The notes under the pieces: generated by a model
Database searches by the model: none
What the model was told of the DNA's origin: nothing
What the model saw: the letters and a program-made list of their open reading frames with translations, nothing else
Program-made: the position numbers and the translations under genes
Shown: positions 4,917 through 63,747 of the stretch, piece after piece
Layout of the letters: each line of letters starts with the position of its first letter
How positions within the stretch are numbered: the first letter of the stretch is position 1
DNA from: an uncultured Bacilli bacterium
Lineage (GTDB): Bacteria; Bacillota_I; Bacilli_A; RF39; UBA660
DNA: 64,000 nt
Direction of reading: 5' to 3'
NCBI GenBank assembly: GCA_934096805.1
Contig: CAKOMW010000002.1
Location: forward strand, 11,736 to 75,735

Positions 4917-6724
4917 AAAACAATCAAAACATTATAGAAACCACAACCAAAGAAGAATATAAACAAAAAAACAATATCAAAACCGAAGAAGAATTATTCA
5001 ACAACTTGCTAAATAATTTAAAAAACGAAATAAAATCCATATTTCAAGGAACAATATCCGAAAATAAATACCAAATAGTAATAAAAACCCTTAACTATTT
5101 AGATGAAACCCTAGAACAAATAGAACATAAAAAACAAATAAAAACAAAATATTTAAGAAAAATAAAACAAGACACCATAACCTACTTAAAGGAAACAGAT
5201 AAAACAAAACCAAAAGCCAATAAAAAAATAGAAATATATCAAAAAATAATAAATAGATTGGAAAACATTGAACTAAATATAAACTATAATAAAAACAAAG
5301 AAACAATCGATAACTATAACATCATAAAATATGTTCTAATCGACCTAAAAGACGCAAATATCAGTCAAAAAATAGTAAAAGAATATGGATACTTAATAAA
5401 TGCTTATAATCAAACCAATCAAAACATTATAAACCAATTGGTAAATGAATACATAAAAGAACTATATAACTACATGGACATTGAAATAAACTACGACCTA
5501 TGCTACTATGAATCAATAATAAACGCTATCTTTGAAAACAAAAAAATTATAATCGAAGAAAAGACACTAAAAGAAAACACAAATAAATGCTTAAAAATAT
5601 TAAAACATAACAAAAACATCGAAGAGAAAAAAAGAATAAAAATGTTTTATTGGATAAACCATTTAATAAACATGTTGAATGATAAAGAATACATTCCAAC
5701 AATAGAAACAATAAATAACCTCTATAATATCAGATTTTATTTTAAACAAGCTCTCCACGAGGAAGGAAGAATCTACTACCTGACTAATCTTACTAAAACA
5801 CCAACAAATCAAGAAGATTACATAATATCGATTGACGACGAAGACAACTATAATAGAGATGATGCTGTATCAATAGAAAAAGAAAATGAAAACTATAACC
5901 TAAAAATATACATATCAGACCCTAACACTTTCTGTACAATGGACTCTCTATTAATAAAAGAAGCTAGAAAAAGATCCCAAAGCATCTACCTAAGTGATAG
6001 AACAATAGAAATATTTCCTGAAAGTATAATAGAGAACTACTTATCATTAAATGAAGAAAAACAAAGACTAGCTAGAATTTATAACTACAAAATATCAGAA
6101 GACGGACAAATAATAGACTTCTACATAGAAAAATCACCAATCATTGTAAGCAAAAACCTATCATATGAAAAAGTGAACAACAACCAGTACAAAGACAAAA
6201 AAATAAACGAGACCTTAGAACAACTACACGAAATAAGAAACATTATAACCAAAAACTATAACATAAAAAATCAATCAAACAGCGAAACCTTAATTGAATC
6301 CCTAATGGTCTTTAATAATATTAACGTTGCAAGATACTTTAAACAACACAATCTCCCATTAATATATAGAAATTTCGAACTAAAAAAAATAAAAAATTTC
6401 GAAGACATCGATCCTCAAGACGAAAATACCAAAAAAATTATAAAAATAATAAATTCAATCACCAATCAAGCATACTTTTCAGACAAAGTATTTCACCACG
6501 ATGGTATAAATGAAGAATATTATTGCTATAGCACTTCGCCTAACAGAAGATACGCCGACATTCTAGTAAATGAATGTGAAGACACTCTATATTTTAATAA
6601 ACCAACCAACAAAGAATACTATGCCTTTGAAGAATACTTAAAAAAAGAAGCAGATTACTTAAATCAAAAAAACCTCCAAATAGCAGAATACTACACAAGA
6701 TATGCAAGAACCTTAAAAAGATAA
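4913..6724 (+). CDS. RNB-domain exoribonuclease (RNase II/R family)
   Basis: SIDDEDNYNRDDAVSIE...IYISDPNTF matches the RNB catalytic DxxxxDDA / HIADV-like region. 603 aa. ATGA overlap with the dnaI stop. Confidence 0.6.
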   Translation: MKNNQNIIETTTKEEYKQKNNIKTEEELFNNLLNNLKNEIKSIFQGTISENKYQIVIKTLNYLDETLEQIEHKKQIKTKYLRKIKQDTITYLKETDKTKPKANKKIEIYQKIINRLENIELNINYNKNKETIDNYNIIKYVLIDLKDANISQKIVKEYGYLINAYNQTNQNIINQLVNEYIKELYNYMDIEINYDLCYYESIINAIFENKKIIIEEKTLKENTNKCLKILKHNKNIEEKKRIKMFYWINHLINMLNDKEYIPTIETINNLYNIRFYFKQALHEEGRIYYLTNLTKTPTNQEDYIISIDDEDNYNRDDAVSIEKENENYNLKIYISDPNTFCTMDSLLIKEARKRSQSIYLSDRTIEIFPESIIENYLSLNEEKQRLARIYNYKISEDGQIIDFYIEKSPIIVSKNLSYEKVNNNQYKDKKINETLEQLHEIRNIITKNYNIKNQSNSETLIESLMVFNNINVARYFKQHNLPLIYRNFELKKIKNFEDIDPQDENTKKIIKIINSITNQAYFSDKVFHHDGINEEYYCYSTSPNRRYADILVNECEDTLYFNKPTNKEYYAFEEYLKKEADYLNQKNLQIAEYYTRYARTLKR

Positions 6725-6731
6725 AAAATGC

Positions 6732-6760
6732 TTGAAAAAAGTATTTTTTTGTTATAGAAT
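6732..6760 (+). promoter_or_regulatory. Sigma-A-like promoter (TTGAAA-N17-TAGAAT) of variable-family copy 1
   Basis: -35 TTGAAA at 6732-6737, 17-bp spacer, -10 TAGAAT at 6755-6760. The same architecture is conserved upstream of copies 2, 4 and 5. Confidence 0.45.
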
Positions 6761-6874
6761 TAGACTATAGAAAACTAAAAAGGAGGACAGGTGTAATTGT
6801 AGGTTATAATTATAAACCACATAATATCGGGTAAAATAATTCGAAAATTTACATTTATACACCTAACAAGCAAT

Positions 6875-8461
6875 ATGATAAACAAACATTCGTCTGGGGG
6901 GGGGCAAAATACTAACAACCCTATAAATAAAAAAAGAAAGATACTATACTTAGTAGCCTTATCAATGTTTAGCATAGGTATAATAACACTAAGCACTTAT
7001 GCACTATATAATAATGAACTAATAACAGGTATAAATAAAATAGAAACAGGACAAGTAAAAATGTCCTACACAGAAGTAAATGAACTAAGCTTAAACAACG
7101 CCCTACCTATGAAAGATGAAGAAGGTAAAAAACTTAACAATTACTTTGATTTTACTGTGTCATCATATATAAAAACAAAAACAGATGATAACAATGAACA
7201 AGTATTAAAATATAATATAATCCTAGAACCAACATATTTTTCCGCACTAGGACAATCAGCTTCCTTACAAGAAATATCTGCATCAGAAATGGCAGAATAT
7301 TATCGTATAATTAATTCGGTTTATCACTTCAAAACATATCTAACAAAAATAGATGACAATGGAACAGAAACAGAAGTAGCAAAGCCAATTAACGTTGAAG
7401 ATTTAAATGGAGTTATAACCCAACAACAAGAAACATTCAAAAACGCCAAAGAACCAGTAACAACAAAGTATAGGCTAAGAATTTGGATAGACTATGAAGT
7501 AGATGCCAACAGCATAGTATGGAAAAAATTAGAACAACTTGGAGGAGCAACAATAAAATTTAGAGTAAACGTAAACACAGACAAAATAGAGCAAACTACT
7601 ACTATACCAATACTTAATCTACCAGTAGGAACAAGCCAAATAAAAAAAGTAACTCATGGTATGAGCTATACTTTACAAGTAGATAATAGGTTTGCAACAG
7701 AATATAGATATCAAGGAACCGATCCTAACAACTACATAAAATTTAATAATGAACTATGGAGAATAATCGGAGTAATCCCAACCGATGATGGAACAGGTAA
7801 AGTAGAAAATAGATTAAAAATAATAAGAAATGAATCAATCGGAGAAATGCCATGGAATGCTTGTGAGTATTCAAATATTGGTAGTGATAGTAATCCTGTA
7901 TATACATGCAATGACACAGGTAAATTCCTAAATGACTGGACTGGATCAACCTTAAACACTTACTTAAACACAACTTATTACAATTCCCTAACCAAAGAAG
8001 CAAGAGACATGATAGGAACAACAAAGTATTATCTTGGAAGTTCAGGCGATGAATTTAATGATTACATATGGGAAGCAGAAAGGTCAAACGAAAGTAAAAA
8101 CTATTATTCATATAATGGTGTGAATAATCCCTTGTCAGAAACAAATAAAATATCACTAGTTTATCCAAGTGATATATATTACGGTTATAACTATGAAATT
8201 CCAATTTTATTATATCAAGCAGACTTATTATCTGTTTTTGAATATTCTAAGATTTTAAAATTGAATTGGAGCAAAACTGATTATGTAAAGACAAGCGTCG
8301 ATAGTAGCCATACGATCAACTTTAATGATGATATTCATGTAGATATCTTTGATAATATGGCAACCCCTTATGTGTATCCAGTCCTAAGTCTCTCATCTAA
8401 TGTAAAAATATCCGGAGGAACTGGAACAAGCACTGACCCTTATACCTTATCCCTTCAATAA
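6875..8461 (+). CDS. Poly-G phase-variable surface protein family, copy 1 (full-length, in frame). N-terminal signal anchor, conserved central WRIIG..PTxD..G.VENR..II module, C-terminal LSLSSNVKISGG.GTS..PYTLS.
   Basis: Continuous 528-aa ORF. N-terminal TM ILYLVALSMFSIGIITLSTYALY. Paralogous to the ORFs at 36.5, 44.6 and 60.2 kb. Confidence 0.7.
   Translation: MINKHSSGGGQNTNNPINKKRKILYLVALSMFSIGIITLSTYALYNNELITGINKIETGQVKMSYTEVNELSLNNALPMKDEEGKKLNNYFDFTVSSYIKTKTDDNNEQVLKYNIILEPTYFSALGQSASLQEISASEMAEYYRIINSVYHFKTYLTKIDDNGTETEVAKPINVEDLNGVITQQQETFKNAKEPVTTKYRLRIWIDYEVDANSIVWKKLEQLGGATIKFRVNVNTDKIEQTTTIPILNLPVGTSQIKKVTHGMSYTLQVDNRFATEYRYQGTDPNNYIKFNNELWRIIGVIPTDDGTGKVENRLKIIRNESIGEMPWNACEYSNIGSDSNPVYTCNDTGKFLNDWTGSTLNTYLNTTYYNSLTKEARDMIGTTKYYLGSSGDEFNDYIWEAERSNESKNYYSYNGVNNPLSETNKISLVYPSDIYYGYNYEIPILLYQADLLSVFEYSKILKLNWSKTDYVKTSVDSSHTINFNDDIHVDIFDNMATPYVYPVLSLSSNVKISGGTGTSTDPYTLSLQ
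6896..6904 (+). repeat. Homopolymeric G tract, n=9, in codons 8-10 of copy 1 (in-frame, ON)
   Basis: ATG ATA AAC AAA CAT TCG TCT GGG GGG GGG CAA AAT... reads through into the 528-aa ORF. Confidence 0.8.
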
Positions 8462-35070: not shown

Positions 35071-36228
35071 ATGGAAAATAATAATGAACAAAATAAACAA
35101 GAACAACCAAAAGAAACAATAAAAAAAGACAAAAATAAAAACATTAGAAACAACATAATAATAGGAATAACACTATTTGCCCTTGGAGTACTTTCAGCTT
35201 TTATAATAATATGTCAAGAACCAAACATATTAACCAAAATAACAGAACAAAAAAATGTAACCATCACTGATACAGGTATTTCAGAAGCAGTAGACAAAGT
35301 ATACGATAAAACCGTAATCGTAACAACATACAAAGACAATCAAAAATACTCATCGGGAAGTGGATTCATCTATAAAGTAAACAAAGACACTACTTATATA
35401 ATTACTAACCACCATGTAGTAGCATCAGGAGAAACCTACAAAATTACCACCACTGATGAAGAACAACAAGATGCAACCCTTGTAGGAAGCGATCAATACT
35501 CCGACATTGCAGTATTAAAAGTAAAAACAAAAAGCACATATAAAGAAGTAGAAAAAGGAAATAGCAATAAACTAAAAATCGGAGACACAACCTTCGCCAT
35601 AGGGGCACCCTTAACAAGTGACTACTCATGGACAGTAACCAAAGGAATAATCTCAGGAAAAGAAAGACTAGTAGAAATATCAACTACATCAACAAACGAA
35701 TCAGACTATGTTATGAACGTTATCCAAACAGACACAGCCGTAAACCAAGGAAATTCAGGAGGTCCATTATGTAATGCAAACGGTGAAGTAATAGGAATAA
35801 TATCAGCAAAAATAAGTGGTACCGGAGTCGAAGGAATGGGCTTTGCCATACCAATAGAAACAGCAACAGAAAAAGCCGATAACATAATAAATAAGAAAAC
35901 AACAACATACCCATACCTAGGAATATCAATGATGAACCTAACAGACATAAAATCATATCCAAACTACTATAACTATTTAGAAAAAACAAACCTAGAAAAT
36001 GGAGTAGTAGTAATGTCAGTAGAAAACAATTCACCGGCTAAAAAAGCTGGACTAAAAGAAGGAGACATTATAACAAAACTGAATGATGAAGAAACAAAAA
36101 ACATAGCTTATCTAAGATACAAACTATATAAACATAAAAAAGGAGACAAAATAACCATAACCTATGAAAGAAATGGTAAAACAAAAACAACCAAAGTAAA
36201 ACTAACTGATCAAAACAAACAAGCATAA
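35071..36228 (+). CDS. HtrA/DegP-family serine protease with C-terminal PDZ
   Basis: TNHHVV (His), D, GNSGGPL (Ser) triad motifs. N-terminal TM, PDZ-like tail. Confidence 0.85.
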   Translation: MENNNEQNKQEQPKETIKKDKNKNIRNNIIIGITLFALGVLSAFIIICQEPNILTKITEQKNVTITDTGISEAVDKVYDKTVIVTTYKDNQKYSSGSGFIYKVNKDTTYIITNHHVVASGETYKITTTDEEQQDATLVGSDQYSDIAVLKVKTKSTYKEVEKGNSNKLKIGDTTFAIGAPLTSDYSWTVTKGIISGKERLVEISTTSTNESDYVMNVIQTDTAVNQGNSGGPLCNANGEVIGIISAKISGTGVEGMGFAIPIETATEKADNIINKKTTTYPYLGISMMNLTDIKSYPNYYNYLEKTNLENGVVVMSVENNSPAKKAGLKEGDIITKLNDEETKNIAYLRYKLYKHKKGDKITITYERNGKTKTTKVKLTDQNKQA

Positions 36229-36245
36229 AACAAACCAAAAGGTAC

Positions 36246-36274
36246 TTGAAAAAGTATCTTTTTTGTATTAAAAT
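36246..36274 (+). promoter_or_regulatory. Promoter TTGAAA-N17-TAAAAT of variable-family copy 2
   Basis: Same -35/-10 geometry as copies 1, 4 and 5. Confidence 0.4.
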
Positions 36275-36355
36275 TAAATTATAGAAAACTAAGGAAGGAG
36301 GAAGAAATTTTATAACAAACATACATATATTTGTTATGAGATTTTTGAATTTTTT

Positions 36356-37904
36356 ATGACAAATAAATATTCGTCTGGGGGGGGGGCAAAATACTACTAG
36401 CCCTATAAATAAAAAAGGGAAAACAATAAAAATAATATCAATAATAATACTTTTAATACTAATAGTAATTAGTATATCTTTTGCATTAGGTAATATTGAT
36501 ATAAATATACTAGGAAGAAGAAATATAAAAATATCTAAATGTGAACTAGATATAAACTTTAAAGAAAGTGAAGAACTAATGCTAGTAAGTAAATATCCCA
36601 TATCAAAAGAAGAAGCATTAAAGTATAATGCAAAAGAAATAAATATAACAAACAATTCTACATGTGATACAGCTTATTATAAAGTAACAATAAAAGACTT
36701 AGTAAATTCATCTATAAATAAAGATAAGATTAACTATCAAGTAATAGATAAAAGTACAAATACAGAAACAATAGATAAAAACCCAGATAACTTTAATATA
36801 AGTGATTCACTTACTAAAGGAAATACAAAAACATACACAATAAGACTATGGATAGATGAAAGTGCAACCAATACTGACTTATTTATAAATGGAGATACAA
36901 CAAAACCAATAGAATATAAATATGCACTTAACATAGAATCAAGTGATGAAGAGATAAAAGGAGCAGGCATGACAGCAACAGAATTTGCCCAAGCAAATGT
37001 AGGACAAAATGGTTTGGAACAAATAACACATACTATAGATAATACACTTCAAGTTGATGAAAGATTTGCAACAGAATATAGATACAGGGGAGGAAATTCC
37101 ACAGTAAATAATTGGGTATATTTTAACTGCAGTGATCCCTCTAATCAAACAGACTCAACATGCGAAAAATGGATGATAATTGGAGTAATTCCAACAGAAG
37201 ACGCAAATGGAAATGTTACAAACAGGTTCAAAATGCTAAGACAAATCATTCGTAATGGAGATTTGTGTATAATAAAACCATCAGGTGGAGGTGGCTCATC
37301 AGGTGGAGGTGGCTCATCAGGTGGAGGAAACGGTTCTACAGATACTTTGTATAGCTGCAACAATAATTACGCAAACAATACTATGTATAATTATTGTTTT
37401 TCGGAAAATATTATAAACTCTAACTATACAGATTATGTAGATTATGCAAAGTATTATCTTGGTGGTTATAGCTCAATAGACGTTACTCCAAAACAAATGT
37501 GGCAGTATGAGAGAAAAAATGAAGCTAACAGAGAAGGATATTTTTATAAAGATAATCAGTTGAATGTTACTAAAAAAGTTGCATTTTTAAGTATCAGTGA
37601 CCATGGATATGCCTCAAGTAACTGTGAAGATAAAACTTTAAACGGTGATAATTCAGACAACATTTATTCCTGTGATAATTGGATATTAGATAGGTTTGAT
37701 CAAGGGAACATTCGAATATTTATTAATGCAGGCTCTGCTAGTAACAAAAGTATTTATCATTTTTCATCGTCCAGGATTATTCTCAGTGAAATGAAAACTA
37801 ACAGTACCGCTCAAGTCATTAACGTCCTAACCCTCTCTTCCAACATTAAAATTACTGGAGGTAAAGGTACTAAGACTGAACCATACCAATTATCAGTGGA
37901 ATAA
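36356..37904 (+). CDS. Poly-G phase-variable surface protein family, copy 2. It is frameshifted in the G tract. The main ORF 36579-37904 is restored by -1 G.
   Basis: With G9 the reading frame gives MTNKYSSGGGQNTTSPINKKGKTIKIISIIILLILIVISISFALG.. (signal anchor), continuous with MLVSKYPIS... It contains a (GGGGS) linker repeat. Confidence 0.65.
36377..36386 (+). repeat. Homopolymeric G tract, n=10, in codons 8-11 of copy 2 (out of frame, OFF; G9 would be ON)
   Basis: ATG ACA AAT AAA TAT TCG TCT G10 then CAAAATACTACTAG gives TAG six codons later. Removing one G fuses to the 441-aa ORF. Confidence 0.8.
37281..37330 (+). repeat. 18-nt tandem repeat (TCAGGTGGAGGTGGCTCA) x about 2.7 encoding an SGGGGS linker in copy 2
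   Basis: PSGGGGSSGGGGSSGGGNGS in the ORF. The repeat is perfect at the DNA level. Confidence 0.7.
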
Positions 37905-41482: not shown

Positions 41483-41562
41483 ATAAATTATATATGTTTA
41501 TTTTTTTATATAGGAAAAAATAAAAAAAAATGATATAATATATAAAGAAAGAAGGTGTAACT

Positions 41563-42753
41563 ATGAAGTGCATATTAATGAATAAAAACACCCCTGTTTT
41601 AGTAGCAGAATACAATACAACCCTGAATGTATTTGACAGAATGTACGAAATTATAGACATCAACTACGCGCCATTAATCATTAAAAATTACTATGAAGAA
41701 GAACAAGATGCATTAATATTACTCAAAAGACTAGGGGAATGGTTTAACGGAAGAGGCATTCCATCATGGAGAGATAAACTAGACTTATTACTTCATAGAC
41801 TTAACATCGAAACCCCCACAGAATTATTAGATAAAGCCTTTGGACTTTCACTATCTGACCAATACTGGTTAAAACCATACGATTTAGAAATAAAATACGA
41901 TGACATCAACTTTTTTGATAATGACTTTGATTATGCTGAGTTTTTAGAAGCATCACTTTCACTCAATAGCAAAACCATAAAAAAAGAAGCATCATTAAAG
42001 ACACCAAATAATACAACAGATGGTATGCTAAAAAAAGCATGGATTATCGAAAATAAAACAAGATACCTATTAAAAGGTGGATACAAAAACGAAATTCTCC
42101 AACCATTTAACGAAGTTCTGGCATCAATGATTTGTGAAAGACTAGGATTTGACCATGTTACATACACATTAGACACCTATAAAGATACAGTCGTTTCAAA
42201 ATGTCCATGTTTTATAAACAAAAACACAGAACTAATTACTTGCTACCAAATAAGAAACAATATGAAAAGACATGACTCAGAAGAAGACTACGAAGATTAC
42301 ATCAAAAAACTGGAAGAAAACAACATAAAAGATGCAAGAATCAAAATAGAAAACATGTACATTCTAGACTTCCTTATAATGAATGAAGATAGACACTTAA
42401 ACAACTTTGGCATCATAAGAGACGTAAATACTTTAAAATGGATAGACGTTGCACCAATATTTGATAATGGTATGGCCCTTTCAATTCAAAGCTACGACGA
42501 TGAAGAGCTAATTATATCAGGGCATGGTAGATTATTCTACGAAATAAAACCATTCGATGAAATCATTAAAGTAGTAAAAGACATTACAAGAATAGATGTC
42601 TCAAAACTAGAAGACATCCCAGAAGAATTTGACAACATGTTACACAAATATCAATACCTAACCAAAATATCAGATAAAAGAATATATAGACTATGCGTAC
42701 TATTACAAAGACAAATAAATAAACTAAAAAAACTAATCGAAGAAGCCCAATAA
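41563..42753 (+). CDS. HipA-like Ser/Thr kinase family protein (toxin candidate)
   Basis: DFLIMNEDRHLNNFGII matches the HipA C-terminal catalytic motif (..L.GN.D.H.KN.S). About 400 aa. Downstream of the XRE regulator. Confidence 0.5.
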   Translation: MKCILMNKNTPVLVAEYNTTLNVFDRMYEIIDINYAPLIIKNYYEEEQDALILLKRLGEWFNGRGIPSWRDKLDLLLHRLNIETPTELLDKAFGLSLSDQYWLKPYDLEIKYDDINFFDNDFDYAEFLEASLSLNSKTIKKEASLKTPNNTTDGMLKKAWIIENKTRYLLKGGYKNEILQPFNEVLASMICERLGFDHVTYTLDTYKDTVVSKCPCFINKNTELITCYQIRNNMKRHDSEEDYEDYIKKLEENNIKDARIKIENMYILDFLIMNEDRHLNNFGIIRDVNTLKWIDVAPIFDNGMALSIQSYDDEELIISGHGRLFYEIKPFDEIIKVVKDITRIDVSKLEDIPEEFDNMLHKYQYLTKISDKRIYRLCVLLQRQINKLKKLIEEAQ

Positions 42754-44399: not shown

Positions 44400-44412
44400 A
44401 AGGAGGAAAACT

Positions 44413-45886
44413 ATGAACAAATATTCGTCTGGGGGGGGGGCAAAATACTACTAACCCTATAAATAAAAAAGGGAAAACAATAAAAATAATATCAATAATA
44501 ATACTTTTAATACTAATAGTAATTAGTATATCTTTTGCATTAGGTAATATTGATATAAATATACTAGGAAGAAGAAATATAAAAATATCTAAATGCGAAC
44601 TAGATATAAACTTTAAAGAAAGTGAAGAACTAATGCTAGTAAGTAAATATCCCATATCAAAAGAAGAAGCATTAAAGTATAATGCAAAAGAAATAAATAT
44701 AACAAACAATTCTACATGTGATACAGCTTATTATAAAGTAACAATAAAAGACTTAGTAAATTCATCTATAAATAAAGATAAGATTAACTATCAAGTAATA
44801 GATAAAAGTACAAATACAGAAACAATAGATAAAAACCCAGATAACTTTAATATAAGTGATTCACTTACTAAAGGAAATACAAAAACATACACAATAAGAC
44901 TATGGATAGATGAAAGTGCCACCAATACAGACTTATTTATAAATGGGGATACAACAAAACTAATAGAATATAAATATGCACTTAACATAGAATCAAGTGA
45001 TGAAAAATTAAAAGGACCAGATTATGCTTTAGAGTTTGCCCAAGCAAATGCAGGACAAAATGGTTTAGAACAAATAACTCATACAATAGATAATACACTT
45101 CAAGTAGATAATAAATTTGCAACAGAATACAGATACAGAGGAGGAGATTCTGTAGTAAAGAACTATGTAACATTTAATAATGAAACATGGAGAATAATCG
45201 GAATAATACCAACTGAAGATACAAATGGTAATGTAGAAAATAGAATTAAGATAATAAGGGATACTTCAATAGGAAATAAATATTGGAATACAATTAAAGA
45301 TACAACAACTAATTCATATAATAACTGGGTAACAGGAACATTAAATACATACTTAAATAATGATTATTATAATACATTAAGTACTGATGCCAAGAATATG
45401 ATAGGAACAACAAAATATTATCTTGGAGGATATGATTCTTCTAATAAAACCTCCGACATAATGTGGCAATATGAAAGAAAGAATGATGCCAATAGAAGTG
45501 GCTACTATTATGGAACTAATCCAATAATGCAAAGTGATGCAAATAAAAAGATAGCAATAATGTATGCCAGTGATTATGGATATGGAGCATCAACAAGTTG
45601 TACGAATACATTGAAATATTATGCTGGCATAAATTATGATTCAAGTACAGAATGTAATAGAACAAATAATTGGTTAGATAAAAGTCAAGCCATATGGTTA
45701 CTTTCTCAGATTACAGCCGATTCCTACGGCGCTTTCAATATGAGCTCGAGTGGCTATGTCGATAACGGCGGCAACGTCGGCAACGACGAGTATGCAGTCC
45801 GCCCAGTCCTAAGTCTGTCATCTAACGTAAAGATTTCAGGTGGAGAAGGCACTTCGAGTAGTCCTTACACCTTATCAGAAAAATAA
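44413..45886 (+). CDS. Poly-G phase-variable surface protein family, copy 3 (frameshifted in the G tract). The start is 13 nt after the pilin-like gene, with SD AAAGGAGGA.
   Basis: About 590 bp of the 5' end are nearly identical to copies 2 and 4. C-terminal VRPVLSLSSNVKISGGEGTSSSPYTLSEK. Confidence 0.65.
44431..44440 (+). repeat. Homopolymeric G tract, n=10, in copy 3 (OFF; G9 would be ON)
   Basis: ATG AAC AAA TAT TCG TCT G10 CAAAATACTACTAA gives a TAA stop. Removing one G fuses to the 417-aa ORF at 44633. Confidence 0.8.
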
Positions 45887-59936: not shown

Positions 59937-60015
59937 TAAGTTATAGAAAACTAAAGAGGAGGACAGGTGTAACTACAAAAATTCATGCATCATGTACAAA
60001 CACCTAATAAGTAAC

Positions 60016-61613
60016 ATGGTAAACAAATATTCGCTAGGGGGGGGGGGCAAAATACTACTAACCCTATAGATAAGAAAGGGAAAACAATAAAAATAATATC
60101 AATAATAATACTTTTAATACTAATAGTAATTAGTATATCTTTTGCATTAGGAAATATTGATATAAATATACTAGGAAGAAGAAATATAAAAATATCTAAA
60201 TGCGAACTAGATATAAACTTTAAAGAAAGTGAAGAACTAATGCTAGTAAGTAAATATCCCATATCAAAAGAAGAAGCATTAAAGTATAATGCAAAAGAAA
60301 TAAATATAACAAACAATTCTACATGTGATACAGCTTATTATAAAGTAACAATAAAAGACTTAGTAAATTCATCTATAAATAAAGATAAGATTAACTATCA
60401 AGTAATAGATAAAAGTACAAATACAGAAACAATAGATAAAAACCCAGATAACTTTAATATAAGTGATTCACTTACTAAAGGAAATACAAAAACATACACA
60501 ATAAGACTATGGATAGATGAAAGTGCAACCAATACTGACTTATTTATAAATGGAGATACGACAAAACCAATGGAATACAGATATGCATTAAACATAGAAT
60601 CAAGTGATGAATATATGAAAGTAGACTATGCATTAACCTTTGCTAAGTCAAAAGTAGGAACAGACGGACTAGAAATAGTAACCCATGAAATAGATGACAC
60701 ACTTCAAGTAGATAATAAGTTTGCTACAGAATACAGATATAGAGGAGGAGATTCCATAGTAAATAACTATGTAACATTCAATAATGAAACATGGAGAATA
60801 ATAGGAATAATTCCAACAGAAGATACAGACGGTAATGTAGAAAACAGATTTAAGATAATAAAAGATGAATCTATTGGATATTATGTTTGGGATAGTGATA
60901 CCGAAATAACATATGATTATGAAATAAATAATAATTTTAATCTTTTGAATAACAATAATAATGATATAATCACCCCAAATGATTTAATTAACCATAATGA
61001 AAAATATGAAACTATACAGACAGCACCTGATTTGGGAACAAAAAAATGTACTACTTGTAGTAATAATTGGGCTAGACCTAGTGCATTGAATACATATTTG
61101 AATAGTACATATTATAATTCAATAAATACTAATTCAAAAAATATGATAGGAACAACAAAATATTATCTTGGAGGATATAATACTTCTGATATAACAAATG
61201 ATGTAATGTGGCAATATGAAAGAAAGAATGATGTCAACAGAAGTGGTTATTATTCTGATACAAATCCAGTAATGTCAAATGATGCATCTAAGAGTATTGC
61301 ATTAATGTATGCCAGTGATTATGGGTATGGAGCCTCAAAAGAGTGTCCACAAACACTAAATAACTATAAGAACGATACATTATGTAAAATGACAAATAAT
61401 TGGTTAGATAAGTCTCTAAAGGAATGGCTACTTCCACAGTATCCAGATGGTGGTAGATTGTTTTATCTTGAGTCCAGCAACGTCGAACATTACAACGGTT
61501 GGACTCTGACTTACTATTCTTTTGCAGTTCGTCCAATTTTATCTTTATCATCCAACGTAAAAATTTCAGGTGGAGAAGGAACTTCTTCTAATCCATACAC
61601 TCTGTCACAATAA
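60016..61613 (+). CDS. Poly-G phase-variable surface protein family, copy 4 (frameshifted in the G tract)
   Basis: 5' about 590 bp nearly identical to copies 2 and 3. Divergent middle. C-terminal FAVRPILSLSSNVKISGGEGTSSNPYTLSQ. Confidence 0.65.
60037..60047 (+). repeat. Homopolymeric G tract, n=11, in copy 4 (OFF; G9 or G12 would be ON)
   Basis: ATG GTA AAC AAA TAT TCG CTA G11 CAAAATACTACTAACCCTATAG gives a TAG stop. The offset to the 60240 ORF is 224 nt, which is 2 mod 3. Confidence 0.8.
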
Positions 61614-62089: not shown

Positions 62090-62168
62090 TAAGTTATAGA
62101 AAACTAAAGAGGAGGACAGGTGTAAACAAAAAGATATATGCATGATACGCACACACCTAATAAGTAAT

Positions 62169-63747
62169 ATGGTAAACAAATATTCGTCGGGGGGGGGGGC
62201 GGAATACTAGTAATAAAGTAAAACAAAACCCCTTATTTAAAGATATAAACGACTATAATAAATATCTATTAAGTTTAATAGGTATTCTTTTTCTTGTAAT
62301 AACAGGAGTAATCTCTTATAATCTTACAAATGCATCATATGCAAAGTGGAGTAGTAGTATAGAGTCTAAGAATGTGTTGAAGCTTAGTGTGCAATCAGGT
62401 CTTGATAAAAGTGGTGCGAATAAACCAGAACTTACAAATAATATGATACCAGTATATTATGATAGTACAAATGCAGTATGGAGAAAAGCAGATGCTAATA
62501 ATAGTAAAGAAAATTATAAATGGTATGATTATGATAATAAGATGTGGGCAAATGCAGTAACTGTTACAGAAACTAATAGGAGTACTTATCTAAGTGCAAA
62601 TGTAGGTACAGAAATAAATATGAATGATATAAATACAATGTGGGTATGGATACCAAGGTATACTTATACATATTTAAATACAAATACACCACAAGAAATA
62701 AATATAAAGTTTGAAAAAGAAACAAATAGTACAGGCACAATAAAATGTACTGATAATGTATCAGGAAGTGGTACAACATCACAAACATGTACAGATACAA
62801 CAAATGGTTCTTTAGTTGCAGGAACATCTACATATACCCACCCAGCATTTACCTTTGGAGATAAAGAACTAAAAGGATTATGGGTAGGTAAGTTTGAGAG
62901 TAGTGCAACAACAATACCAACAAGTACTTCAACAACAGAATCTACAGTAATAATAAAACCAAATGTACAATCATTAAGATATAAAGCAGTATCGTATTTC
63001 TTTCGCGATGCCCGACAAATGGAGAAAGCAAATAATGTATATGGCTTTCCACAAAGTAGTAGTACAACATTTAATTGGAATGGAGAATTAAATGGAGATA
63101 CAAATAATATAGATATCCATATGATGAAGAATACAGAATGGGGAGCAGTAACATACTTATATCATTCTAAATATGGAAGATGCACAAATGGTAAATGTGA
63201 AGAGCTAACAATAAATAACTGTAATACTTATACAACAGGAATTGGAGCAGACTCAGTAAGTGCAAGTTATTCATCAACAACATGTACAACAGATAAGAAT
63301 AAATATAATGGAGAAAGTGGAGTAAAAGCGTCAACTACAGGAAATGTATATGGTGTGTATGATATGTCTGGAGGCCCATGGGAATATACAATGGGTAACA
63401 TGGTAAACTCCTCTAATCAATTTTATACATTATCTGCATCAAACTGGAGTACAACAACATATCCATTAGCAAAGTATTATGATAGTTATACATATAATGG
63501 TAGTTATACAACATATACAAGAGGAAGATTAGGAGATGCAATAGTAGAAATGAGTCCTTCATCTAGTTCTTATACTTCGTGGTATTCAGATTTCGCCTAC
63601 TTCCCGTACTCGTCCAATTCTTGGTTCACTCGTGGGGGTCACTACAATGATGGTCCGGACGCGGGCGTTTTCGGTTTCAGCTACGAGGTTGGTATTGCGG
63701 ACCATTACCACTCGTTTCGGGCCTCGCTCATCGCACAGGCCTCTTAA
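62169..63747 (+). CDS. Poly-G-switched membrane-anchored protein with a C-terminal FGE-sulfatase (formylglycine-generating-enzyme-like) domain. It shares only the promoter/leader/MVNKYSSGGG module with copies 1-4. Frameshifted in the G tract.
   Basis: With G10 the frame gives a TM anchor YLLSLIGILFLVITGVISY continuous with ORF 62374-63747. NVYGVYDMSGGPWEYT and WFTRGGHY...FR motifs resemble the FGE/SUMF1 family. Confidence 0.55.
62189..62199 (+). repeat. Homopolymeric G tract, n=11, in copy 5 (OFF; G10 or G13 would be ON)
   Basis: ATG GTA AAC AAA TAT TCG TCG G... The T to G change at the tract edge lengthens it. A TAA follows 7 codons later. The offset to the GTG at 62374 is 205 nt, which is 1 mod 3. 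Confidence 0.8.

Follow-up and report, generated by a model that had tools for sequence, protein, structure and literature searches.

Long leaders in a poly-G-switched gene family of uncultured gut Bacilli: candidate hairpin-bridged ribosome-binding sites

How does a ribosome find a start codon when the only Shine-Dalgarno (SD) sequence of the gene lies far upstream of it? This question is raised by a gene family in a 64,000-nucleotide (nt) stretch of DNA from an uncultured Bacilli bacterium (contig CAKOMW010000002.1, positions 11,736 to 75,735; hereafter the window, to which all coordinates refer and in which all features listed below lie on the + strand). The window is chromosomal, encoding MutS, an RNB-domain RNase, TypA/BipA, Tgt, ProRS, and a type IV pilin, and has a G+C content of 29%. 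It contains five copies of the family, the genes of which open with M-(I/V)-N-K-(H/Y)-S and then run into a poly-G tract (seen in copies 1, 4, and 5). The tracts of copies 1–5 have 9, 10, 10, 11, and 11 G, respectively (6896-6904, 36377-36386, 44431-44440, 60037-60047, and 62189-62199), and only copy 1 is in frame in this assembly, the other four hitting stop codons soon past the tract. For the long leaders of copies 1, 2, 4, and 5, the best available explanation appears to be a split, hairpin-bridged ribosome-binding site of the kind described for phage T4 genes 25 and 38, a reading to which we give about an even chance.

SD sequences are usual in this genome, as most genes in the window have AGGAG, GAGGT, or AGGTG 5–9 nt before the start, and AGGTG followed by 5-6 nt serves as the SD of several of them. 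Most family members also follow this rule. Their canonical leader consists of a promoter, ~15 nt, GGAGG, 7 nt, and ATG (..ttataagaaactat-GGAGG-taaaact-ATG; most members read ..tataagaaactatGGAGGtaaaactATG). Copies 1, 2, 4, and 5 keep the family promoter, the 5′ leader, and the SD, and have 43-80 extra nt, self-complementary in sequence, between the SD and the ATG. No SD-like motif (GGAG/GAGG/AGGA/GGTG-type) was found within 20 nt of the ATG in copies 1, 4, and 5 or in any other long leader.

The leaders of copies 1, 4, and 5 share a 16-mer, AGGAGGACAGGTGTAA, which occurs exactly three times (6781-6796, 59957-59972, and 62110-62125) and is expected in shuffled sequences not at all; a preliminary description of this DNA had located all three occurrences, with the end of the second misplaced by one position (59973). 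Because these copies are paralogs, the three occurrences represent shared descent rather than independent events. A strong promoter-like site, TTGAAA-17-TA(G/A)AAT, lies upstream of the 16-mer in each case, and the same type of site precedes copy 2. In copy 1, this site (TTGAAA-17-TAGAAT, 6732-6760) has 10/12 consensus matches; transcription probably starts at ~6767, which would place the SD ~15 nt into the transcript. The upstream SD of copy 1 (AGGAGG, 6781-6786), 88 nt away from the ATG, is the homolog of the SD that canonical family leaders have 7 nt before theirs. It is followed by a 5′ arm, AGGTGTA (6789-6795), which is overlapped by a start-stop pair, GTG TAA (6791-6793 and 6794-6796); by a looped-out interior that is predicted to fold on itself (6797-6857); by a 3′ arm, TACACCT (6858-6864); and by a 10-nt A-rich spacer, AACAAGCAAT, that lacks an SD and leads to the ATG (spacer and ATG, 6865-6877; ATG, 6875-6877). 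The interior contains a second start-stop, TTG TAG (6797-6802), a near-perfect 17-nt palindrome, GGTTATAATTATAAACC (6803-6819), and a recurrent leader motif, GGGTAAAATAATTCGAAAAT (6829-6848). The open reading frame (ORF) of copy 1 spans 6875-8461.

Copies 4 and 5 have shorter versions of the same arrangement, and exact sequence checks bore out the earlier observation that ACACCT precedes an SD-less ATG by 10 nt in these two copies as in copy 1. The copy 4 leader (59957-60018) has its SD at 59957-59962, the arms AGGTGT (59965-59970) and ACACCT (60000-60005) separated by a 29-nt loop, GTG TAA at 59967-59972, and its ATG at 60016-60018; the copy 5 leader (62110-62171) has its SD at 62110-62115, the arms at 62118-62123 and 62153-62158 (ACACCT), GTG TAA at 62120-62125, and its ATG at 62169-62171. 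Both contain a short upstream open reading frame (uORF), namely, MHHVQTPNK* in copy 4 (59985-60014) and MHDTHTPNK* in copy 5 (62138-62167). Within the looped-out region of each of these two copies, a further in-frame ATG (59992 and 62142) lies 24-27 nt ahead of the annotated start; it would add 8-9 residues and is not conserved in homologs.

Pairing between AGGTGT(A) and (T)ACACCT is the dominant prediction for these leaders and is part of the minimum-energy fold of copies 1, 4, and 5, in agreement with the structured leader that had been proposed. In copy 1, its pairs have probabilities of 0.76-0.96, compared with ~0.6-0.66 in copy 4 and 0.73-0.80 in copy 5; with the SD kept unpaired, as if ribosome-bound, the values of copies 4 and 5 become 0.87-0.98. 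The same helix was recovered unprompted by RNAalifold. It is separated from the SD by 2 nt and from the SD-less ATG by 10 nt, and the predicted effective distance of ~12 nt matches the 11-13 nt anticipated in the preliminary description.

That description had also stated that copy 2 lacks this element and that copy 3 uses an intergenic SD behind the pilin gene. The latter is correct, as copy 3 has an ordinary, hairpin-free site directly after the pilin gene (GGAGG-AAAACT-ATG, 44402-44415; canonical AAGGAGG-6 nt-ATG). For copy 2, the string is indeed absent; however, its leader (36297-36358) has a different and stronger hairpin in the same SD-hairpin-ATG layout. The SD (GGAGG, 36297-36301) is followed by a 17-bp hairpin (36303-36319 / 36330-36346; z -4.6), a spacer, GAATTTTTT (36347-36355), and the ATG (36356-36358), whose start is overlapped as ATGA by a uORF encoding MRFLNFL* (36336-36359).

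To place these copies in the family, we scanned species-representative genomes with an unbiased pattern made up of the first codons and the poly-G tract (AAAYATTCGNNNGGGGGGGG), which gave ~70 family members at low-G+C loci of uncultured gut "Bacilli" or "Mycoplasma sp." metagenome-assembled genomes (MAGs), many of them from Hadza samples. The ProRS of the nearest other species is only 67% identical. The protein family as a whole has >1800 homologs, many without the poly-G extension; the family proteins have an N-terminal membrane anchor and no informative Pfam domain. Long leaders were gathered also by a second unbiased pattern on metagenomes and by look-ups of contigs encoding homologous proteins. 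This resulted in 21 distinct long leaders from gut Bacilli assemblies, which fall into three types by stem sequence. Type A has the AGGTGT / ACACCT arms and occurs in a short form (nine leaders including copies 4 and 5; SD-to-ATG distance of 53 nt, no indels) and a long form (five leaders including copy 1; 83-89 nt). Type B (AGAAATTTT.. / ..GAAATTTCT; 51-54 nt) comprises six leaders including copy 2, and type C (GATTTTTAAATTATTT / AAATAATTCAAAAATC, i.e., GATTTTT../..AAAAATC; 67 nt) is represented by one leader, L043. The poly-G tract is uninterrupted in all long-leader copies but L107 (GGGGGGCGCC), the ORFs are intact in all of them, and several have the tract in frame in their assemblies (copy 1, P0121, P0126, P0131, P0257, P0319, and P0312).

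The three types have a common predicted layout. When only the sequence between SD and ATG was folded, which was done for 20 of the 21 long leaders, 19/20 formed a single exterior helix that starts 1-2 nt past the SD and stops 9-10 nt short of the ATG, leaving 10-13 unpaired nt in total between the two in silico. The helix of L117 starts 4 nt past the SD because of SD indexing, and in L128, the 21st leader, both arms are intact by sequence. Among shuffled inserts, 2-7% per type gave the same layout (one helix, separated from the SD by ≤3 nt and from the ATG by 7-11 nt), and 0.5-3% did so with a closing helix of at least 6 bp; these percentages are indicative only, as the criterion was set after the data were seen. 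Type B hairpins are far more stable than shuffled sequences (z -3.2 to -4.6), and the type A long leaders have z values of -1.8 (copy 1), -1.6 (L111), -3.1 (L113), and about 0 (L110). Both the first codons and the 10 nt preceding the ATG are rich in A and predicted to be unpaired.

The arms are also well conserved. The AGGTGT/ACACCT pairing is kept in 13/14 type A leaders. Among the short ones, 48/48 cells pair, the arms are nearly invariant, and the two single changes observed each still allow G.U pairing. These leaders vary strongly in the loop but hardly at all in the two arms, the 5′ leader, and the 10-nt spacer. This pattern suggests constraint on the arms, and recombination among paralogs could give the same pattern. 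Pairing holds in 96.9% of the type B cells, and two pairs are changed on both sides (C-G/U-A and A-U/G-C), with A.C intermediates.

The distribution of spacings points in the same direction. Across the family, the SD-to-ATG distance is bimodal, being either 6-10 nt (23 distinct leaders) or 51-89 nt (23 distinct leaders), with none between. The most telling single case is L127, which is syntenic with and orthologous to copy 1: it shares the upstream RNase gene and the promoter, its protein is 95% identical, and its poly-G tract is in frame. It reads AGGAGG-AAGAAATTTT-ATG, a linear spacing of exactly 10 nt without a hairpin, which corresponds to a type B leader minus its hairpin. As this member is presumably expressed, 10 nt would be a functional spacing that the hairpin versions reproduce virtually, and L127 can be regarded as a natural control showing the linear spacing that they would mimic. 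Thus, the copy 1 locus has either a hairpin leader or a plain 10-nt spacer in close strains (L127:2928-3003 vs. window 6724-6877). Likewise, the copy 2 locus has either a type B or a type A short leader (L124:2800-3003 vs. window 36150-36358), L124 being syntenic with copy 2. The leaders appear to have been swapped between paralogs through recombination.

Taken as split sites, the long leaders would work as follows. A 30S subunit bound at the upstream SD would find the ATG at an effective distance of 10-12 nt, a distance that the family uses linearly too, and translation from this ATG would run into the poly-G tract, which sets the frame ON or OFF. That the helix forms in vivo and that the upstream SD serves the ATG are both inferences. 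The GTG-stop in the 5′ arm would most likely be a by-product, in that AGGTG is a common SD form and an immediate stop would make an accidental start harmless. The SD may in addition protect the 5′ end of the mRNA, a role compatible with bridging.

The closest known parallels come from phage T4, in which intervening hairpins reduce the SD-AUG spacing from 22 to 5 nt in gene 38 and from 27 to 11 nt in gene 25, with effects on translation that were shown through mutagenesis and probing (PMC3014915). Like these genes, the long leaders have an SD far from the AUG, no proximal SD, and a hairpin base flanked by the SD and the AUG. They differ in that the reduction, from 51-89 to 10-12 nt, is predicted, whereas the T4 effect is experimental, and in that the looped-out segment is longer (41-77 nt). 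There is no sequence relationship, and the present sites belong to a bacterial chromosome, not to a phage; a single paralogous family has several unrelated stems, apparently exchanged between loci, and a poly-G frame switch is added. To our knowledge, no well-studied hairpin-bridged ribosome site is known from a bacterial chromosome, and experimentally documented cases come from T4-type phages.

Several points weigh against a split site. The effective distance of 12 nt exceeds the 5-9 nt usual in the genome, and we infer the transcription starts of the long leaders from promoter-like sequences. The hairpins of the type A short leaders have low stability (-5 to -8 kcal/mol), with z values of about 0 compared with shuffled sequences. 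Of the structured control element proposed earlier, the predicted pairing stands, whereas the short hairpins of copies 4 and 5 do not exceed shuffles in stability. A looser measure of the layout (exterior unpaired nt no more than observed) is satisfied by 20-45% of shuffles. As to the compensatory changes that the preliminary description had suggested looking for, the type A leaders aligned contain no compensatory double change in the AGGTGT/ACACCT helix and one disruptive change, as the 3′ arm of L110, a syntenic ortholog of copy 1, reads ACCCCT and the closing helix is lost. With no double change, structure is inseparable here from plain sequence conservation or gene conversion. The type B covariation is not significant against column shuffles (118/500). 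The homologs are all from metagenome assemblies of one narrow clade, and the covariation therefore stays weak. Finally, types B and C have GGAGGAAGA in common on the 5′ side, so the three stem types may not be fully independent.

The alternatives to be weighed and a split site are not all mutually exclusive. One of them takes up the emphasis of the preliminary description on the GTG-TAA pair, and proposes that a ribosome starts at the SD-proximal GTG-stop (in type B, at the uORF), terminates, stays on the mRNA, and scans or diffuses to the SD-less ATG, either directly or via a short uORF ending at the ATG. The pair is well conserved within type A: a GTG-stop is found 4 nt past GGAGG in 14/14 leaders (TAA in twelve and TGA, still a stop, in two), and a second start-stop, TTG followed by TAG or TAA, is found at SD+10 in 5/5 long ones. 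Among the type A short leaders tabulated, 4/8 have a uORF ending 1 nt before the ATG (copies 4, 5, L048, and L107); in 6/6 type B leaders, a uORF encoding M..KFL(N/I)FL* overlaps the start as ATGA with only synonymous or conservative changes. No out-of-frame ORF reads past the main ATG in any leader. However, types B and C, which have the same layout, lack a start-stop beside the SD, and type C also lacks a coupled uORF; the start-stop is therefore not common to the three types and is probably not central to the mechanism. Copy 1, the other type A long leaders, L109, L112, and L123 have no type A uORF, and that of L108 is truncated. The only SD is 22-34 nt away from the uORF ATGs, which have none of their own, and those of type B are inside the stem. 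Moreover, the GTG is just 4 nt from GGAGG compared with the typical 5-9 nt, and the stop-to-ATG distance of 43-79 nt is long for reinitiation. The uORFs resemble termination-reinitiation coupling through ATGA or TAAnATG, in that the type B TGA overlaps the main ATG and four type A uORFs end 1 nt before it; they differ in having no ribosome sites of their own, in being partly stem-buried, and in being absent from many type A leaders and copy 1. Functional start-stops do exist in Escherichia coli, in yecJ and hslR (Meydan et al., 2019), where they lie inside genes and mildly reduce host-gene expression; the one tested slightly lowered rather than raised it, and an immediate stop was proposed to neutralize an accidental start as a form of damage limitation (bioRxiv 10.1101/520783). 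As in type A, these consist of an SD-like sequence, a start codon, and an immediate stop, whereas the type A pair lies in a 5′ leader and within a stem arm, with the GTG 4 nt from the SD, and initiation there is only putative. Overall, the GTG-stop is probably secondary, and we consider such a reinitiation relay unlikely. A bolder variant, in which the SD-proximal GUG-UAA loads a 70S ribosome with initiator tRNA and this ribosome, owing to the place of the start-stop in the 5′ arm, is then handed across the hairpin base to the SD-less AUG, would amount to a bacterial "shunt" or initiator-tRNA hop, similar to the bypassing in T4 gene 60 but at initiation. This variant seems very improbable; if it were true, exchange of leader cassettes would form a second, translational layer of variation above the poly-G switch.

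Another possibility, also on the unlikely side but a little less so than the relay, is that the upstream SD does not serve the ATG and is instead a 5′ stabilizer (STAB-SD) or a standby site, at which a bound 30S subunit blocks 5′-3′ decay. The ATG would then be started weakly without an SD from A/U-rich, unstructured surroundings, and the long-leader copies would be low-expression versions. The model case is cry3A of Bacillus thuringiensis, the coding sequence of which is reported to have its own translation start signals; similarly, a strong SD-like sequence lies here near the mRNA 5′ end and far from the coding start in a Bacilli-class organism, but the coding start is SD-less and the upstream SD is the only one available. 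The SD lies ~15 nt from the presumed 5′ end in all four leaders (copies 1, 2, 4, and 5), and the A-rich, predicted-unpaired sequence around the ATG would suit a weak start. STAB-SD and RNase J1 protection were described in the Bacilli, and a STAB-SD does not direct initiation (PMC4113751). The GGGTAAAATAATTCGAAAAT hairpin module also occurs in family leaders with a proximal SD of their own (L031, L053, and L091), so bridging is not needed to explain this hairpin. Such a role leaves unexplained why, in three stem types, the hairpins begin 1-2 nt past the SD and stop 9-10 nt short of the ATG, why spacing is bimodal, and why the ortholog L127 has collapsed to 10 nt, and it does not sit well with the general reliance of genes in this genome on SDs. 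Yet another view, which we regard as improbable, holds that the long leaders are evolutionary debris, i.e., chimeras from recombination or partial duplication between paralogs with a functionless inverted repeat, in poorly translated or silent copies whose conserved blocks were homogenized via gene conversion. The differing leader types at syntenic loci of very close strains (copy 2 vs. L124 and copy 1 vs. L127), the lack of covariation in the AGGTGT/ACACCT helix, and the broken helix of L110 are all consistent with this. The gene at 41563 has an ordinary ribosome site (AGGTGTAACTATG) that matches the 5′ arm string AGGTGTAACTA exactly, and AGGTG is a frequent SD form in this genome; for these reasons, the 5′ arm may be a fossil ribosome site. 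In addition, leader interiors are weakly similar to family 5′ ends, and the local alignments provide marginal indications (p about 0.03-0.08) that the insert may be a decayed duplicate of the 5′ end of the gene. On the other hand, debris would hardly be expected to retain an uninterrupted poly-G tract (in all long-leader copies but L107) and intact ORFs, several of them in frame, or to have a strongly diverged loop between fixed arms in a layout that recurs with unrelated stems. All things considered, the structural idea of the preliminary description, a pairing that brings the upstream SD to the ATG, is partly supported and is the best available explanation, with corrections needed for its emphasis on the start-stop and its statement on copy 2.

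Some other candidates were rejected. A leaderless transcript, which the preliminary description had raised as an alternative, finds no promoter-like site near the ATGs, as a consensus scan of copies 1, 2, 4, and 5 placed the sole + strand promoter-like site upstream of each ATG before the SD. A terminator or attenuator was discarded, with no terminator-like site on the + strand and a U-run after an AU-rich stem only in type B and none in A and C. A DNA-level operator or invertible segment is at odds with arms of only 6-7 bp whose spacing varies from 29 to ~65 nt, and a dispersed mobile mini-element was ruled out, as GGGTAAAATAATTCGAAAAT was not found outside family leaders. No covariance model of Rfam 15 matched at the gathering score, and permissive scans gave chance-level matches only.

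If a split site is confirmed, these leaders would represent a natural bacterial hairpin-bridged site with several interchangeable versions in one multigene family, in an uncultured human-gut Bacilli lineage, and expression of these phase-variable surface proteins would hinge not only on poly-G length but also on RNA folding. Furthermore, gene callers would miss or misplace starts that have no nearby SD.

In addition to the main subject, a few minor observations were made. The ribosome site of the HipA_C-like gene at 41563 (window 41549-41565), gaAGGTGTAACTATG, shares 11 nt with the type A 5′ arm region (AGGTGTAACTAc). P0334, a homolog of copy 2, starts with MRFLNFLWQINIRLGGGQ..., which corresponds to the type B uORF (window 36336-36359) read through its TGA as Trp into the main gene; this start is probably a gene call made under genetic code 4 on a low-G+C contig. 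An alternative code (TGA = Trp), considered on account of P0334, was rejected, as the long intact ORFs and five TGA-terminated ORFs in the window fit the standard bacterial code (stop codons: 35 TAA, 5 TGA, and 3 TAG). A related poly-G family (ATGCAAACAAATATTCGCCAG(n)) is present in the "Mycoplasma sp." MAG CAZEAD01 (L007, L012, L022, L029, L066-L068, L076, L080, L083, L088, and L098). In this family, an inverted repeat, AAGTATGCTAT..~19 nt..ATAGCATACTT, with a T-run after it, is conserved across the -10 box, upstream of a normal AAGGAGG-7 nt-ATG; the repeat looks like an operator or attenuator. The pattern scan also matched an unrelated conserved element in Chloroflexota MAGs, ..gaaattagaacAAATATTCG-G(12 to 28)-TAATGTTATGTAATA (L003, L005, L013, L016, L020, L027, L039, L086, and L093), which occurs at several sites per genome and contains very long poly-G runs of variable length.

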